Shown one piece after another: positions 4,586-64,000 of a stretch of 64,000 nucleotides of DNA. Positions within the stretch are counted from its first letter, which is position 1; each line of letters begins with the position of its first letter. The stretch spans positions 3,295-67,294 of the forward strand of contig JAJYDC010000012.1 of NCBI GenBank assembly GCA_021777835.1. Reading direction: 5' to 3'. A model generated the notes under the pieces. The model was not told where the DNA came from. It ran no database searches and saw only the letters and a program-made list of their open reading frames with translations. Origin of the DNA: Bacteroidota bacterium (GTDB taxonomy: Bacteria; Bacteroidota; Ignavibacteria; Ignavibacteriales; Ignavibacteriaceae). The position numbers and the translations under genes were made by a program.

Positions 4586-5131
4586 ATGTATCGCAAGATG
4601 CTTTTGATATTACCGGTAATCTTAATGGGATTTGTTACTTCCGGATGTTATCAGGTGAATGGTGAATTTTTAGAATTAAAAAATGAAATATTATCTTCAA
4701 CCGGAAGTAGTTATAACAGGGATGTTGAATTTGCACTTGGGAAGGTTTCTATTTCAATAGTCAGGGCATTTGCAAGCCTTGATAACAATGATGACGAAAT
4801 AATAAAGAATATTTCAGGAATTCAAATAGGTGTTTATAAAAGGATCAGGCTTGATGAAGGCGATACTGATTTATTTCAAAGAATTAACTATAAGTTAGAG
4901 AATAATGGCTGGAAATATTTTGTAAGAGAAAAAGATCATGATGAAGTGAATATTATTTATTACAGAAGTAATGAAGAGGAAACACTTGGGGCTATGTTTA
5001 TAATATCATTGGATAAGGAAAAACTTACGCTTGTAAAAATACGCGGTGATTTAAGAAGAATTGTAATAGCAGCAATAAGGGAAAAGGGAGATCCGATAGA
5101 AGCATCCGGCATGCATAATAGTCATGACTAA
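4586..5131 (+). CDS. Lipoprotein, DUF4252-like
   Basis: The start is reassigned to the ATG at 4586 (MYRKMLLILPVILMGFVTSGC). This gives a lipobox-like TSGC motif and leaves only 1 nt between it and the stop of the upstream gene. The track start at 4553 would overlap that gene. Confidence 0.5.
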   Translation: MYRKMLLILPVILMGFVTSGCYQVNGEFLELKNEILSSTGSSYNRDVEFALGKVSISIVRAFASLDNNDDEIIKNISGIQIGVYKRIRLDEGDTDLFQRINYKLENNGWKYFVREKDHDEVNIIYYRSNEEETLGAMFIISLDKEKLTLVKIRGDLRRIVIAAIREKGDPIEASGMHNSHD

Positions 5132-10376: not shown

Positions 10377-11538
10377 TTCATTGCTGAAATTTACGTTCTG
10401 GAAGATAGTAGCGGTTATAATTATAGTTGCTGGATTTATTTCAACATATTACCGATTTACAAAAGGATTAGGTGCCACAACAAATCTAAGTGATTTAGTT
10501 CCCTGGGGACTATGGATAGGCTTTGATTTTCTTGGAGTAGGATTAGCAGCAGCGGGATTTACGATAGCAGCGACGGTGCATATTTTCAATCTTCATAGGT
10601 TTGAGCCGATAGTTCGCCCGGCTATATTAACTGCATTTATCGGATATTCACTTGTTGTAGGGTTGTTAGTAGTTGATCTTGGTCGTCCTGAAAATTTTTG
10701 GCATCCTCTTGTAATGTGGAATATTCATTCAGTTATGTTCGAGATTACGTGGTGCATAATATGTTACACAACAGTGCTTATGCTTGAATTCGCGCCTGTA
10801 GTTTTAGAGAAGTTTAATCTGAAAGCACCGATTAAGCTTCTTAAGAAAATATCGATTCCTATAGTAATTGCCGGAGTTTTATTTTCTACACTTCATCAAT
10901 CATCATTCGGTTCACTCTATTTAATTGTTCCGGGAAGGCTTTACCCGCTGTGGTATTCATCATTATTGCCTGTTCACTTTTATATCTCCTGTATAGCGGC
11001 AGGAATATCAATGATAATATTTGAATCGTACATAAACGCAAGAGCGTTTAACACGGGTCTTCGATTAAATATATTATCTGAGCTTGCAGTTGTTGTCGTA
11101 ATTGTATTAGCAATTGAATTTATACTAAAGATTTCCGATTTACTTCTATCAGGCAAATTCAATTATTTAATTACCCTGAACATGGAATCATTTTTGTTCT
11201 ACCTTGAAATCATAATAGGAACATTTCTGCCGATAATATTATTAGGCAGCAAACGAAACCGGGAGAACAAGGGCATATTATTTATAGGGGCGATTTGTGT
11301 AATATGCGGATTCATTCTTAACAGGATGAATGTTTGCATGACAGGTATGGCGGCATCTTCAGGAGTAAGTTATTTTCCATCATTTGATGAAATCAGTATA
11401 ACTTTTATGCTTGTTGTGTTAGCCATGATTGCTTTTAACCTTGTAGTACAGAACTTCCAGGTATTCACATACACAGAGGAACATGTTATTCAAGAAAATG
11501 GAGTTGTTGAAACAAAGAAAATTATTACAAGTGAATAA
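10366..11538 (+). CDS. NrfD/HybB/DsrP-family integral membrane (quinone-interacting) subunit
   Basis: A 390-aa protein with about 10 hydrophobic helices. It overlaps the FeS gene by 11 nt. This is the canonical NrfC-NrfD gene pairing. Confidence 0.8.
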   Translation: MKTNSLLKFTFWKIVAVIIIVAGFISTYYRFTKGLGATTNLSDLVPWGLWIGFDFLGVGLAAAGFTIAATVHIFNLHRFEPIVRPAILTAFIGYSLVVGLLVVDLGRPENFWHPLVMWNIHSVMFEITWCIICYTTVLMLEFAPVVLEKFNLKAPIKLLKKISIPIVIAGVLFSTLHQSSFGSLYLIVPGRLYPLWYSSLLPVHFYISCIAAGISMIIFESYINARAFNTGLRLNILSELAVVVVIVLAIEFILKISDLLLSGKFNYLITLNMESFLFYLEIIIGTFLPIILLGSKRNRENKGILFIGAICVICGFILNRMNVCMTGMAASSGVSYFPSFDEISITFMLVVLAMIAFNLVVQNFQVFTYTEEHVIQENGVVETKKIITSE

Positions 11539-30244: not shown

Positions 30245-31366
30245 TTAAAGAATTGCAAACAATTTCCCGGGTAACTGTTTAACTATGCCTTTGAATTCTA
30301 AAGAGAGAAGATGAACTAAGCAGTCGGAAGTTGAAAGATTAGTAATTGAAGCTATCTTATCAATTTGTATGGGCTCATTTGTTAAAGAAGCTATGATTTT
30401 TTCTTCAAACAAATTTAGACTAGCCTGTGGTTGCGGAATATTCTTTCCGATTACAGGTTTTAGTTTCAATTCTAGTTCAATCAAGACATCCTCATAAGAC
30501 CTAATTAGTTTTGCTTCGCCTCTTTGAATTTTTAGATTAGTTCCTTCCGACTGTTTTACGCCTAGGTTTCCGGGGATAGCAAATACCTCACGATTTTGAT
30601 CAAGTGCATAGGCTGCAGTTTGCATTGCACCGCCGGTAACTCCTGTTTCTATTATTATTGTACCAAGGCTTATTCCGGAAATAATTCTATTCCTTTTAGG
30701 AAAGTTTACAGCATCCGGTTTAGTTCCCAAACTATATTCTGAAATTACTATCCCATGTTCAGATATTTCATTAAATAATTTTCTATTCTCAGGCGGGTAT
30801 ATTACGTCTAATCCCGATCCAATAACAGCAATTGTTCTACTGTTATTTTTTAAGGATGTAATGTGAGCAATAGTATCAATACCGCGAGCGAGACCGCTAA
30901 CGATTGTAATTTTTTGTGAAGCAAGGTCATTAACCAATCGTTCAGTTTGAAGCTTTCCATAATTGGTAGGCTGACGAGTGCCTACAACTGCAATTGAGTA
31001 ATTATCCGATTCGGAAAAATTTCCTTTATAAAAAAGAATAATAGGCGGGTCATAAATTTTTTTAAGAATAGGTGGATATTCATTATCCCAGACAGTGACA
31101 ATATGGCAGCCAAGTTTTTCAAGTTTATCAAGTTGTTTTAAAACTATATCATTTGTTGCTTTGCGATTGCGGTTAATTTGACAAACACGATTAGCGAGGT
31201 TAGTACTTATTCCTTCAATTTCTAAAAGTGAATCATAACTTGCAGAGAGGATATTTTCAGTTGTTTTAAATTTTGAAAGGAGGCTCCTAAATTTTGCAGG
31301 GCCAATTCCTTCTACGGAAAGGAGCAAGAATAGATCAGTTAATTGTTCAATATTAAGCTTAGTCAA
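30245..31366 (-). CDS. dprA: DNA-processing protein DprA
   Basis: It has the DprA Rossmann core (AVVGTRQPTNYG, SGLARGIDTIAH, GVTGGAMQTA) and a C-terminal winged-helix-like tail. Confidence 0.9.
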   Translation of the reverse strand: MTKLNIEQLTDLFLLLSVEGIGPAKFRSLLSKFKTTENILSASYDSLLEIEGISTNLANRVCQINRNRKATNDIVLKQLDKLEKLGCHIVTVWDNEYPPILKKIYDPPIILFYKGNFSESDNYSIAVVGTRQPTNYGKLQTERLVNDLASQKITIVSGLARGIDTIAHITSLKNNSRTIAVIGSGLDVIYPPENRKLFNEISEHGIVISEYSLGTKPDAVNFPKRNRIISGISLGTIIIETGVTGGAMQTAAYALDQNREVFAIPGNLGVKQSEGTNLKIQRGEAKLIRSYEDVLIELELKLKPVIGKNIPQPQASLNLFEEKIIASLTNEPIQIDKIASITNLSTSDCLVHLLSLEFKGIVKQLPGKLFAIL

Positions 31367-59218: not shown

Positions 59219-60274
59219 ATGCTTTCAAAAATACTATCCAGTTCAACTATTGGTATTGATGCCTACCTTGTTGAAGTTGAAACAAATGTAGAGAAACAAT
59301 TACCTGTAATAATCATTGTCGGATTACCGGATAATGTTGTTAAGGAAAGTAAAGAACGTGTAGTTGCCGCTATTAAGAATAGTGGCTTTGCATTTCCAAT
59401 AAAGAAAATCACAATTAATATGGCGCCTGCCGATATTAAGAAAGAGGGGAGTTCGTTTGACCTGCCGATTGCAATAGGTATTTTAACAGCAACAAACATT
59501 GTTCAAATAGAATATACAAGCGATACAGTATTCCTTGGTGAGCTTTCATTGGACGGTGCACTTCGCCCGATAAAGGGTGCGCTTCCGATTACAGTAGAAG
59601 CAAAAAAAAGAGGGATAAAAAGAATTATATTGCCAATGGATTCAGCTAAGGAGGCATCGATAGTTGATGGTATTGATGTTTACGGGATGGAAAATCTTCT
59701 TGAAGTAGTTAAGTTTATAAACAATGAAATAGACAAAGAGAAAATTTTCACTGATAGGAATGAGCTCTTTTCTCAGATCAATTTATATCATTTAGATTTT
59801 TCCGATGTTAAGGGGCAGGAGAATGTAAAGCGAGCATTGGAAGTTGCTGCAGCGGGTGCACATAATATTCTGATGATTGGTCCACCGGGGTCCGGTAAAA
59901 CAATGCTTGCAAAAAGGATTCCTTCAATACTTCCTCCGATGTCATTTGACGAAGCTTTAGAGACAACAAAGATACATTCGATTGCAGGTATAATTCCGAA
60001 GGAACAGTCGCTGATAACGGAGCGTCCTTTTAGAAGTCCGCATCATACAGTATCGGATGCTGCACTAGTTGGAGGCGGATCATTCCCGCGTCCAGGGGAG
60101 GTTTCTTATGCACATCACGGAGTATTGTTCTTAGATGAGTTGCCGGAATTTAAAAAGAATGTTTTAGAAGTTTTACGTCAGCCGCTTGAGGACTCAAGGG
60201 TAACAGTAAGCCGCTCGAAGTTATCGTTAGAATTCCCGGCAAATTTTATGCTTGCTGCGGCAATGAATCCGTGA
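59219..60274 (+). pseudogene. comM: comM/yifB (Mg-chelatase-like AAA+ competence helicase), truncated at residue 351 by an insertion
   Basis: The N-terminal Lon-like domain ([13 protein letters not shown]...[14 protein letters not shown]) and the AAA+ core ([20 protein letters not shown]) are intact. The ORF stops right after FMLAAAMNP, where family members continue CPCG... About 150 C-terminal residues are missing. Confidence 0.8.
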
Positions 60275-61760
60275 AGTTGCGTTGCCCATTTGACATCAAT
60301 TTCTGAGAAGGGGTGATGTAGGCGAGATTGATGCTGATCTCATCGCTTCCGATATCTATTTTTTCCGTTATGGTCTCAATGATCTTGCGTTTATCTTCCC
60401 GCTCCAATTTGTTCCATCGGGAATAAAGGTCTTTCGCTTCATGGATGACTTCGTCTTGCGAAAGGTATTGAATCTTAAGAAAATCAAGCTCGCCCTGGAG
60501 TTCCGGAATTTGCTTTTCTATTTGTTGCCGTCGGTCGTCTATTGGTCGGTAATGTGACCCAAAGCCTTCTTTAGGAATTTCGCCGTCAAGATAGAGACGC
60601 ATCATATGATCCAATTCCTCTTTGAGTTTCTTTGATTCTTTCACGAGCGATTCCAAGAGTTCTTCTTTTTCTTTGATTTGGATATCCGCTTGGCGTAAAG
60701 ACTTCATAATTTCTTCAGGTGAAAAGACATACGTTTTCAGCTGTTCGTGGAATATCGTTTCCAAATCTTCTACGCTGATTTTATTATGGCATTGGTAGCA
60801 CGTATATTTGGGCGAATTTGAAGGAACATACATTTTGGCGCCGCAGGTGCAATAGGTGAATCCGCTAAAAAGATGCACCGCTCTTTTGCCCGGTTTCTTA
60901 TTAGTTTTCTCCTGTTCATCCAGGATTGCGTTGCATCCGTTCCAAAGTTCTTCGCTGAGAATTGGAGGTACCGGCAAGGTTACCCAATCCGTTTCAGACT
61001 TGAGTTCCCATTTTTTATTCTCTCCCAAACTTTTCGTGTAGTTCAAACGGTGCTCTCCTTTGGATGTGGGGTCGCGAAGTAATCGAGAAATGGTGGTATC
61101 GGAAAAACCTGATCCGTTGCGAGTGCGATGCCCTTGCTCATTCAATAACCGGGCGACCGTTTTTTTTCTTTTGTGCTCAAGAAAAAGTTCGAAGAGAAGT
61201 TTTAGAATCGGTGCTTCCTCTGAATTCGGCACAAGTTTTTTCTCCACCCATTGATATCCGAATGGTGCCCGTCCTCCTAACGGTTTTCCCAACTTTGCCC
61301 GTATGGGAACTGATACAGAAACACGTTCAGCAATCTCCTCACGCTCCCACTGAGCCATGGCGGCTATCATGGTGTAGAAAAGACGCCCTGCCGGCGTAGA
61401 GGTATCAATCGCTTCCTGAAGCGAAACAAGGTCTGCACTGTAAATATTAAATATCTCGGCGAATTCAAGAAGCTCTCTCGTGTTTCGTGCGAGCCGGGCA
61501 AGTTTTGAGAATATGAGTCCGGTAATCCGGCCGTTCTTGATATCTTCGAGCATCCGCTTGGTTTCAGGATATCCCATCACCGTCTTTCCGCTCAACGCTT
61601 CAAGATGATAGACTTCTTGTACGTTCCATCCTTTCGCTTCAGCATAGAGCCTGGCTCGTTTCTCATGATGTTCTGGGCTTTCCCCTCTCGCCTGATCTTC
61701 AGTTGATACTCGAATCCAGATTCCTACGGATTTTCCATGATCGTCTGCTATATGTTTCAT
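60246..61760 (-). CDS. Large serine recombinase (integrase)
   Basis: It has the resolvase catalytic motif ([12 protein letters not shown]), a recombinase domain, a zinc-ribbon (CTCGAKMYV...CYQCHNK) and a long coiled-coil tail. An RBS (GGAGGAAGGG) precedes the ATG. It is markedly more GC-rich than its surroundings. Confidence 0.85.
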
Positions 61761-62341
61761 CCCTTCCTCCAGAGTTTCAAAATCAATGCTGCATATCTAA
61801 GAATTTCGGGGCACAAAAACAATGACATTGATTTCCCAAAAGGCGTTCATTTTTTAAAAATAAAAACCCAATACGCATGCTTCATCATGTTTCCTCCTGA
61901 GAATAGAGAATTTTTATAAATTTTTAATTTGCGACTTAGAAGCAATAGTTATTAAATGTACTATTAAAACAGAATTAATCTATCAAAAACAATAGAAAAT
62001 ATTCAGTGCTAGTTTGAATCTGTTGCATTTTAATTATAGGAAAAATGATTTTCCGGGTTATTTTGAATATTAAGCTATTATTAATTTCTACCCCATTTAT
62101 TGACTCGCAATTTATTTCTCCATAACTTCATCACAAGCAATTTTACTAACAACCATTCTGAGTAATAAAAGTATGGTTTATGAAATTAAGAGTCTCTTTC
62201 GTTTTTTATATAGCAACTCGAGTAAGTTATCTTTTCTTCATATGTTTTTAATCAAATCTTTTACTCTCAATAACAGGAAAGGTTGGGGAAAATCTTTTAA
62301 ACTTCAATCATTTTAATAAATTTTTTAAAAAGAGATATACA

Positions 62342-63088
62342 ATGAAAAACTTTAAAATAATTTTTGTGCATATTATTTTCTTGATTGTTTTCGTCTTTAC
62401 TTTAACATGTGAAGCACAAATTAATCCTGTGTATAAAATAATGAAACTGAGGGGATGGATTTCTCCTCTTGAAAAAGATTTGGGAAAATTGACTCCCGAT
62501 CAATACGAAAAAGAAGTTCTCGTCAGCATGGGGTATAACGATACCACAGTCACAAAACTTCAAAAAGCTGGTGTCAATCTCTTATCCTTACACAAACGAT
62601 CTGGGCATTGGAATGAGAAAACATGGGCAGCACTTTCTGACTGTATTATTATAGGTACGGTCTCACGTATTGAGCATCCGTTTGGCGAAAAGTCTTGGTT
62701 TCATACGGTAGCATATGTTCGGGTAGAGGAGTTTCTTAGAAATGATTATAACCTTCCTAAAATGCAAATCCCTGTACTGTTAGTATCAGGACCAACAGGA
62801 ACAGGACAAACAGCAATTGAGATAGGTGAAGATACACTTGGAATCGGTGAGCATGTTTTGCTTTATCTTAGCGCCTGTTCATTAATACGTTTTGCCTCAA
62901 ATAATCACATGCATAATTTGTACAATCAATTGATAAATGATTCAACAATAAAATTTAGTATTGTTGCTAAATTTAATATAGAAACTGGAAAAGTGATTTC
63001 TCGAAACAGGGAAAGAAACTTAAATAATGTAAGAAGCGAAATTAAGACAGTGCTAACAACCATACACCCTAAATTGTCGAATAAATAA
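62342..63088 (+). CDS. Secreted hypothetical protein
   Basis: A 248-aa ORF with a signal peptide (MKNFKIIFVHIIFLIVFVFTLTCEAQ). I recognise no motifs in it. Confidence 0.5.
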   Translation: MKNFKIIFVHIIFLIVFVFTLTCEAQINPVYKIMKLRGWISPLEKDLGKLTPDQYEKEVLVSMGYNDTTVTKLQKAGVNLLSLHKRSGHWNEKTWAALSDCIIIGTVSRIEHPFGEKSWFHTVAYVRVEEFLRNDYNLPKMQIPVLLVSGPTGTGQTAIEIGEDTLGIGEHVLLYLSACSLIRFASNNHMHNLYNQLINDSTIKFSIVAKFNIETGKVISRNRERNLNNVRSEIKTVLTTIHPKLSNK

Positions 63089-63117
63089 AAGCTTAATATT
63101 TTAGAAGGAATGATATC

Positions 63118-63999
63118 ATGAATTTGCGCTCTTTTAAACTTACGTGGACATTTATTTTTTTTGCACTTTTATATTCACCTTGGATTTTTGCACAATGTTA
63201 TGTCGCTAATGGTGTGAGATGGCCAGCTAATGCGAGCACGGTTACGTACCACATAAACAGCGGTCTTGCTACTTCATTCGCCACTCAACAAGATTATGAA
63301 AATGCTATCGACTCGGCTGCTGCACAATGGGATAATGCAGGCGCCAACTTTAAATTCGCCAAAGGTTCTGATGTAAATTATAGTCAAGGCAACGAACCCA
63401 GCGACATCTCTCAGGTTGGATATTATATTAATGACCAAGATTCAAGCAATGCAATCACTGTACCTTATGTTTGGGATGGTACCGATACGCTTGCGAAAGT
63501 TGAGACTTATCTCAACCAAGCCTATATTTTCTCAGCTAATCCAAATAGTGATGAGCTTGATATCTGGACTACTGCTGCACACGAATTTGGCCATTGGCTT
63601 GATCTATTAGATGAGACCGATCCTTCTTGTTCTCAAAATGTAATGTATAAGTATTTAGCCAATGGTAATACTTCACGCCGATACCTAACCCAAGATGATA
63701 AAGATGGAATAATCTCTATCTACGGAGATGCAATAACTGGTATAAAGGATTACATTACTATAACTGAAGATTTAAATTATTATAATGTAAATCAATACTA
63801 TTTGAATTATATCCATGCCAGCTTTGTTGATGAGGACGGCGATGGAGGTAGCGAAGGAATCACAAGTTGGGATAATTGGCAAATCAAAGCTAGTTATAGT
63901 TGTGGAGAAGTTTTATTGTATGATAATCCGAGTCCTGATTTTGAATTACCAAATTTACCTTCTGGGTATTTATGGAATAGAGATGCCAATGGTTACGTA
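63118..63999 (+). CDS. Secreted metzincin (matrixin/M10-like) zinc metalloprotease; C-terminus lies outside the window
   Basis: This ORF is not in the supplied track because it has no stop codon before the window end. The ATG at 63118 has GAAGGAA upstream. It has a signal peptide (MNLRSFKLTWTFIFFALLYSPWIFAQ), the zinc motif HEFGHWLDLLD, a Met-turn (NVMYKY) and LTQDDKDGIISIYG. Confidence 0.7.
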   Translation, partial: MNLRSFKLTWTFIFFALLYSPWIFAQCYVANGVRWPANASTVTYHINSGLATSFATQQDYENAIDSAAAQWDNAGANFKFAKGSDVNYSQGNEPSDISQVGYYINDQDSSNAITVPYVWDGTDTLAKVETYLNQAYIFSANPNSDELDIWTTAAHEFGHWLDLLDETDPSCSQNVMYKYLANGNTSRRYLTQDDKDGIISIYGDAITGIKDYITITEDLNYYNVNQYYLNYIHASFVDEDGDGGSEGITSWDNWQIKASYSCGEVLLYDNPSPDFELPNLPSGYLWNRDANGYV

Positions 64000-64000
64000 A

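Follow-up and report, generated by a model that had tools for sequence, protein, structure and literature searches.

In a 64-kb stretch of an Ignavibacteriaceae genome (Bacteroidota bacterium, assembly GCA_021777835.1, contig JAJYDC010000012.1; the whole 64,000-nucleotide stretch is referred to here as the window), the competence helicase gene comM (yifB) breaks off after 351 codons, and a gene for a large serine recombinase (LSR) lies directly against the break on the opposite strand. We conclude that the window very probably holds the left attachment junction, attL, of a chromosomally integrated mobile element that was placed in comM by its own LSR. An earlier note on this DNA, made from the sequence alone, had proposed that an element insertion splits comM, and we arrive at the same reading because a sister lineage carries empty, attL and attR versions of the site, comM 3′ parts from the lineage of the window start at the crossover dinucleotide TG, and the junction is invariant beside LSR homologues across phyla. 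The features that make up the junction are as follows.

59219–60274, + strand: 5′ fragment of comM/yifB, codons 1–351 plus a junction-made TGA (open reading frame (ORF) list, profile matches, full-length relatives, alignment to the solved ComM 8rxd)
60247–60305, + strand: attL (identity with other element copies starts at 60272; junction invariant in 44 loci; attB, attL and attR compared)
60246–61760, − strand: LSR gene, 504 residues (ORF list, domain matches, alignment)

Anatomy of the comM–LSR junction

The comM product encoded in the window is 351 residues long and ends in …AAAMNP, followed by TGA. It matches the YifB family profile TIGR00368 (E = 1.3e-140) over profile positions 2–347 of 499 only, and also matches Pfam ChlI and, over positions 1–158 of 207, Pfam Mg_chelatase. 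The Lon-like N-domain (PF13541) and the Walker A/B motifs of the AAA+ core are kept; the CPCG cysteine cluster, the remaining AAA+ domain and the Mg_chelatase_C lid (PF13335) are gone, such that the ORF does not have the architecture of full-length ComM and is the 5′ fragment of a true member of the family. In a protein search, which placed the host in Ignavibacteriaceae, the normal product of relatives is 512 residues long. One of these, P0004 (512 residues, 94% identical to the window fragment), reads on past the break as ...AAAMNPCPCGYY / ...AAAMNPCPCGYYTDPGREC, covers positions 1–499 of TIGR00368 (6.6e-205) and matches the solved ComM 8rxd at 4.6e-129. Because the profile match stops at 347 of 499 and P0004 continues, the window ORF is a truncation of the 512-residue protein rather than a short paralogue, in agreement with the earlier note, which had comM intact for 351 residues and then stopping at AAMNP|CPCG. 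The 161 lost residues (352–512), with the Cys cluster and the Mg_chelatase_C lid among them, align with the ComM hexamer 8rxd, and the truncated ComM is presumably an inactive helicase.

The LSR ORF, correctly described before as a 504-residue gene abutting the break from the opposite strand, converges on comM and overlaps it by 29 bp. Its product contains a Resolvase domain (PF00239; residues 14–150, 1.2e-29) and a Recombinase domain (PF07508; 1.6e-18), with a weak zinc-ribbon match (Zn_ribbon_recom, PF13408; 20.5 bits, under the 25.3 cut-off). The catalytic motif IRVS19TEDQ is invariant across an alignment of three LSRs, four Cys residues (C304, C306, C321 and C324) are likewise invariant, and residues ~340–450, read by eye from the translation, contain many Glu, Lys and Leu in a heptad-like arrangement. 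Its closest relatives of known structure are the TP901-1 integrase (6.5e-19, 71 bits) and SPbeta integrase catalytic domains; SPbeta YokA/SprA scores 38 bits against the window LSR. The guanine-plus-cytosine (G+C) content is 43–49% in the LSR region, 34–39% in the nuo genes upstream and 27–38% downstream. The LSR gene is intact and full length, with its catalytic and zinc-ribbon residues in place, and its product may be catalytically active.

The anatomy of the junction can be followed base by base. The host B arm, ...gcttgctgcggcaatgaatccg, ends at 60271, the crossover dinucleotide TG occupies 60272–60273 and the P′ arm of the element, aagttgcgttgcccatttgacatcaatttc, runs from 60274. ComM ends after P351 because TG and the first element base, A, form the stop codon TGA. 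On the LSR side, the last ~8 codons (…TDSLPQQA, 60249–60271) and the stop are host comM DNA, with the GQRNF codons being the P′ arm. The same LSR in locus L013 has 525 residues and a different 29-residue tail; its C terminus varies with the junction because flanking DNA encodes the tail, which is also why an exact-product look-up of the 504-residue LSR returned no match. The independent assembly L015 has the same junction and is 99.7% identical over 5 kb, so the junction is not an assembly artefact. A promoter and terminator scan near the junction was uninformative, giving fewer hits than in shuffled sequence.

Some metagenome contigs break at this very point: L005, carrying comM, ends at 4674 at the TGA, and L014 and L017, carrying the element, start at TG (window 60272). 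These breaks suggest that at least two junction variants occur together in the samples concerned.

Empty and occupied comM sites in relatives

The locus of P0004, L007, holds an uninterrupted 512-residue comM in the same nuoG-nuoH-nuoI-comM order as the window, followed downstream by tRNA-Tyr/Gly/Thr/Trp, secE, nusG, rplKAJL and rpoBC. As the earlier note had foreseen, attB could be derived from such an intact copy: it reads GCGGCTATGAATCCT-TG-CCCATGCGGCTATTAC in L007, against GCGGCAATGAATCCG-TG-aagttgcgttgcccatttgacatcaatttc in the window, and because the two sequences diverge there the crossover is placed at TG, 60272–60273. In the genome of the window, the comM 3′ part from codon 352 onward would begin, after TG, with tccatgcggttatta…. 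The sister lineage shows all three states of the site, an empty attB (L007), an attL (L101) and an attR (L106; ...attggcaacgcaggaa-TG-CCCATGCGGCTATTAC), with identical flanks and with differences confined to the element side of TG, and its 90% cluster comprises 13 intact and 2 split comM alleles. The TG core is all that attL, attR and attB have in common, and long flanking direct repeats are absent. The P and P′ arms mirror each other about a shared 12-nt core, atgggcaacgc, and agree at 19/31 positions in all; as at serine-integrase att sites, attP is an imperfect inverted repeat with a 2-bp non-palindromic crossover.

The earlier note had looked to a comM 3′ fragment beyond the element as the other junction. 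Within the window this expectation failed, with tblastn finding no such fragment anywhere in the 64 kb or in the first six loci; the element extends beyond base 64000, which puts the 3′ part outside the window. It was borne out on other contigs of the same lineage. A search with the C-terminal 161 residues returned many fragments of 138–272 residues in Ignavibacteria, among which P0151 (138 residues) sits on L008 (GCA_027391735.1) and L009 (GCA_027391715.1), contigs of metagenome-assembled genomes (MAGs) from the window lineage. At attR in both, a minus-strand helix-turn-helix (HTH) gene (HTH_3/XRE) is followed by ...gggcaacgcgacca-TG-tccatgcggttattac (the arm is also given as ...gacagatgggcaacgcgacca-TG-tccatgcggttattac): the comM 3′ part starts exactly at TG and is preceded by an arm mirroring the one on the LSR side. 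In silico, joining window 59219–60273 to either L008 attR restores a 512-residue ORF, 487/512 or 478/512 identical to P0004. L008 and L009 were themselves considered as the direct continuation of the window and rejected, there being no nucleotide match and only 25% identity between the M10 peptidases.

All seven contigs encoding the identical 351-residue product are split, by three different LSR elements, and the three LSRs at this identical position (504, 522 and 499 residues) are 68–72% identical to each other. Every short comM whose contig continues is followed by an LSR, and relatives with the same short form and no recombinase, a case that the earlier note had allowed for, were not found among them. 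Among the best 120 cluster representatives of Ignavibacteria comM, 16 end at the MNP site. Sister-type comM 5′ fragments (P0245) were examined as possible residents of the island; this found no support, as they stand in normal nuoGHI context.

The window sequence from 60272 to 64000 is 100% identical to L011/L012/L013 (7931–11659) over 3.7 kb. In L011–L013 the element has a different left neighbour, and the copies diverge exactly at TG; judged from these two left neighbours, the element has moved recently.

Element content and family distribution

Beyond the LSR, the window holds the start of the element cargo; dprA lies elsewhere in the window and is listed for context.

61761–62341, no strand: AT-rich spacer, 27–28% GC, between the divergent LSR and cargo genes (composition)
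62342–63088, + strand: cargo gene, 248-residue protein with a hydrophobic N-terminal leader (identical in 10 other element-bearing contigs)
63118–64000, + strand: cargo gene, M10 (matrixin) metallopeptidase, cut by the window end (domain match; identical L013 copy)
30245–31366, − strand: dprA, intact transformation-specific RecA loader (confirmed)

The 248-residue protein, which is probably secreted, matched no family. The L013 copy of the metallopeptidase has 933 residues and carries Por_Secre_tail, a sorting domain of the type IX secretion system (T9SS). The two genes together (window 62342–64000; L013 10001–13578) have host-like G+C and look like an inserted module, as the LSR of L001 adjoins the ATPase backbone directly. 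Past the M10 gene, the identical copies encode a 74-residue ORF, a 438-residue ATPase resembling TrwB and type IV secretion system (T4SS) coupling proteins (L013 14304–15620; TrwB_AAD_bind, T4SS-DNA_transf and TraG-D_C matches), a 115-residue ORF, a PD-(D/E)XK nuclease, a DUF932 protein and others. This backbone is 82–85% identical to that behind the different, 522-residue LSR in L001/L002. About 12.7 kb into the element, on the opposite strand, there is a second, unrelated serine recombinase of 517–551 residues with the N terminus MTTRKNPAIMKGIIYTRVSSDEQ (L013 20631–20747, also in L011, L012, L014 and L016), which may be another nested element.

Because the coupling-protein-like ATPase, the PD-(D/E)XK nuclease and the DUF932 protein follow in the identical copies, the window element is probably a conjugative or mobilizable integrative element, not a prophage. 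PHROGs gave no structural phage hits among 10 element proteins (~13 kb examined), barring a weak P-loop match to terminase. Searches of 50,697 phage records and of 72,556 plasmid records gave no LSR relative above ~30% identity, and 2.9 million IMG/VR contigs contain one true relative.

The window element belongs to a very widespread and strongly conserved comM-targeting LSR family. A scan of one genome per GTDB species returned 173 LSR relatives; the family counts given here come from the best 80 of these 173 (56–97% identical), with phyla taken from record titles. The titles place the family in Bacteroidota/Ignavibacteria, Acidobacteriota, Planctomycetota, Armatimonadota, Alpha-, Gamma- and Deltaproteobacteria, Eisenbacteria, Elusimicrobia, Firmicutes, Verrucomicrobia, Nitrospirales and groups of the candidate phyla radiation (CPR). 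A comM 5′ fragment ending at about residue 351–357 abuts the LSR 3′ end in 46 of the best 80 loci, and junctions on short contigs add four more, for 50 of the best 80. The junction reads ATGAAyCCn|TG|ArGTTGCGTTGCC in 44/46 abutting loci, with TG invariant. A TrwB/HerA-like ATPase lies upstream of the LSR and in the same orientation, again in 46 of the best 80 loci; it has ~440 residues or, as DUF87/TrwB_AAD_bind proteins, ~1000 residues preceded by a ~166-residue protein (for example, L033 6120–11503 and L111 3103–8290). This conserved ATPase core is possibly a DNA translocase for transfer.

Two further arrangements were seen in the family. At L083, L086 and L098 (LSR 3′ ends at ~11400–11500 or ~3060), the element is inserted in the opposite orientation: CA connects its P′ arm with the comM B′ arm in reverse complement. 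The dinucleotide at the junction depends on orientation, and the CA junctions are consistent with the flipping of the central dinucleotide that is expected for an LSR. At L021, L030, L048, L049, L057, L073 and L079, two of them Paceibacteria (CPR), intact attP-like sites (…ggcaacgca…-TG-…gttgcgttgcc…) lie past the LSR 3′ end with no comM junction; these could be tandem arrays or unintegrated forms.

Mechanism, alternative readings and known systems

Characterized LSRs bind attP and attB as dimers and bring the two into synapse; the central dinucleotide is cut with a 2-nt stagger, and rotation is followed by religation. For excision they need a directionality factor. By analogy with this established mechanism, from which the catalytic steps here are taken, the window LSR would recognize a site of ~40–50 bp over comM codons ~345–358 (…AAMNP|CPCGY…) and an inverted-repeat attP, whose P′ half would lie inside the 3′ end of the LSR gene. 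It would cut both sites at the central TG and exchange strands to give the product comM5′-TG-[LSR … cargo … HTH regulator]-TG-comM3′. Precise excision by the LSR would rebuild the 512-residue comM, and we infer that such excision may occur at the present day. As for the choice of site, the most economical reason would be that comM disruption shields islands from transformation-mediated curing; a second plausible one is that the near-universal AAMNPCPCG codons give a broad host range.

Several points weigh against this account. The right junction of the window copy lies outside the window, with size and integrity taken from other same-lineage assemblies. No intact comM allele (empty attB) of the window lineage was found among ~15 billion proteins, and no circular attP form, excision product or directionality factor candidate was found. 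Neither a relaxase nor T4SS genes turned up in the ~13 kb of identical element covered. We infer the loss of ComM function from the truncation, and we know of no demonstration of natural transformation in Ignavibacteria.

The break could also be a simple deletion or pseudogene, or an assembly chimera, with the LSR as an unrelated neighbour. The sole point for this is that the 3′ part is absent from the window, and it is refuted by the 3′ parts found at attR in the same lineage, by the independent assembly with the same junction, by the identical junction beside homologous LSRs in 46–50 of the best 80 loci and by the comparison of attB, attL and attR. A fixed, immobile scar, in which comM is permanently knocked out in the lineage and the LSR no longer acts at these sites, is unlikely. 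It fits the split state of 7/7 contigs with the identical 351-residue product and the lack of an intact allele on record for the window lineage; the LSR ORF, however, has its full length and keeps every catalytic and zinc-ribbon residue, and comM of this one lineage is abutted by three different LSR elements. Recent site-specific events are also indicated by the 100% identical element, which elsewhere has another left neighbour, with the breakpoint exactly at TG.

Quite unlikely, in our judgement, is a programmed reversible switch of the kind formed by skin in sigK, SPbeta in spsM and the Listeria comK prophage, in which excision restores comM and turns efficient transformation back on. Excision at TG would restore the comM ORF exactly, the LSR is intact and recently moved, dprA is intact, as the earlier note had it, and the sister lineage has both occupied and empty alleles. 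Yet the protein search that lacked an intact allele of the window lineage tells against a switch, as does the unseen excision product, and the score of the NCBIfam XisF model, 122 bits, falls far short of its cut-off of 375. Related elements occupy this site in dozens of phyla that have no developmental programme in common, a pattern better explained by parasitic choice of a conserved motif than by host domestication.

Some loci of the family carry more than one element end. In L013 (7890–7950, also in L011 and L012), a minus-strand HTH_3 gene is followed by ...caattggcaacaatgccacacgacta-TG-aagttgcgttgccc, an attP-like P-TG-P′ hybrid and therefore a junction between two tandem elements. The layout of the window is that of L013 minus everything between the comM 5′ part and the element, with the breakpoint exactly at TG. 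L008 (9890–16400, and the same in L009) has two attR junctions and two comM 3′ ends ~6 kb apart, with no recombinase between them. The inner 3′ end is sister-species-like, being 93% identical to L007 in nucleotides, and ends at the comM stop; 28 bp past this stop is a third P-type arm, 'gttggcatcgcaacct'+TA (10443–10460). The outer one is of the resident type (79% nucleotide identity) and is followed by tRNA-Tyr. Contig DAHYUC010000108.1 of the L009 assembly (GCA_027391715.1) is 95.8 kb long. In L031 (8433–12554), from the Armatimonadetes MAG contig JACPPP010000254.1, the element carries a full-length comM of 511 codons directly upstream of its LSR and in the same orientation; it also splits the resident comM at the usual site, and the two comM copies are 89% identical in amino acids and 77% in nucleotides.

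It is possible, if doubtful, that the comM site in the window lineage is a changing array of several elements, perhaps as long as ~95 kb, assembled through non-canonical LSR reactions (attP × attL/attR, or excision of sub-units). This suggestion is made because of the P-TG-P′ hybrid, the strain variants that differ by whole elements at TG and the foreign second comM 3′ end inside the island. Were it true, it would mean, together with L031, that some members of the family carry comM sequence that restores or re-creates their target, and 56–70% identity over more than 10 phyla with a fixed ATPase–LSR core would place the family among the integrative elements of broadest host range.

The finding, correctly called, is of a known kind and comes from a new host group; it leaves current understanding unchanged. 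It extends the evidence for a preference of mobile elements for comM to an uncultured phylum. It also bears on annotation: the genes called 'YifB family ATPase' (351 residues) in Ignavibacteria MAGs are comM truncated at attL, not short paralogues, and 138–186-residue 'ATP-binding protein, partial' calls are the attR partners of these fragments. Genome engineers who work across phyla could be interested in the family as a source of natural LSR/attP/attB triplets, in which attB (the AAMNPCPCG codons) is universally conserved. The less ordinary leads are the tandem-array features and the duplicated comM 3′ end in the sister contigs.

That comM is a hotspot for islands, as the earlier note stated for other phyla, is published: it is listed as a mobile-element hotspot (PMC12378983) and, in Durrant et al. 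2022 (PMC10083194), comM/Mg-chelatase is the most frequent known LSR target, with homologues of Mg-chelatase and ATP-dependent proteases targeted by 12.4% of predicted site-specific LSRs and with competence genes enriched among targets. ComM promotes branch migration and is not strictly essential, according to PMC12378983 (citing Nero 2018); transformation efficiency would be expected to fall after the truncation seen here. Disruption of comM has been proposed to protect islands from transformation-mediated removal (PMC11441513, PMC12378983).

Among characterized systems, the comM/yifB-targeting LSRs of Durrant et al. are alike in that the LSR gene adjoins a split gene of the Mg-chelatase family, a single conserved attB within the target gene serves diverse LSR clusters and the target is of the competence category (PMC10083194). 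In the window, too, the LSR gene lies at the element end directly beside the split Mg-chelatase-family gene; the other comM half, absent from the window, would flank the far end of the element and is present in same-lineage L008/L009 and sister L106, on contigs separate from the window copy. That paper, as far as its text was searched, gives no description of a TG core at the MNP|CPCG codons, of the conserved ATPase–LSR core or of tandem arrays (PMC10083194). In Wolbachia, sr1WO prophages have the Mg-chelatase gene as their integration site and carry HTH_XRE regulators at the far end (PMC9203015). Compared by layout, they resemble the window element: gene halves flank the element, one end has the recombinase and the far (3′) end has HTH_XRE, a feature also of attR in L008 and L106; unlike these tailed prophages, the window element has no phage structural genes that we saw, and its LSR family is near-absent from phage and viral collections.

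The Listeria A118/phi10403S prophages in comK, Bacillus SPbeta in spsM and skin in sigK share intragenic LSR insertion with precise excision that restores the gene, and the comK case, like the window element, hits a competence gene. They differ in being prophages or relics with demonstrated regulated excision and other target genes, and the window LSR is only distantly related. AbaR/AbGRI islands (Tn6022-type, Tn7-like) of Acinetobacter baumannii disrupt the same target gene, comM, and lower transformation (PMC11441513, PMC7508600, PMC11014353), whereas they use Tn7-like transposition with target-site duplication and no serine recombinase, the comparison being at gene level. The SCCmec (staphylococcal cassette chromosome mec) and Ccr arrays at rlmH (orfX) are likewise LSR-driven elements in tandem at one site, as in the L013 hybrid and the two attR junctions of L008; SCC, however, inserts at the 3′ end of its gene without inactivating it, and the Ccr models fall far short of their cut-offs with the window LSR, CcrB scoring 143 bits where the cut-off is 900.

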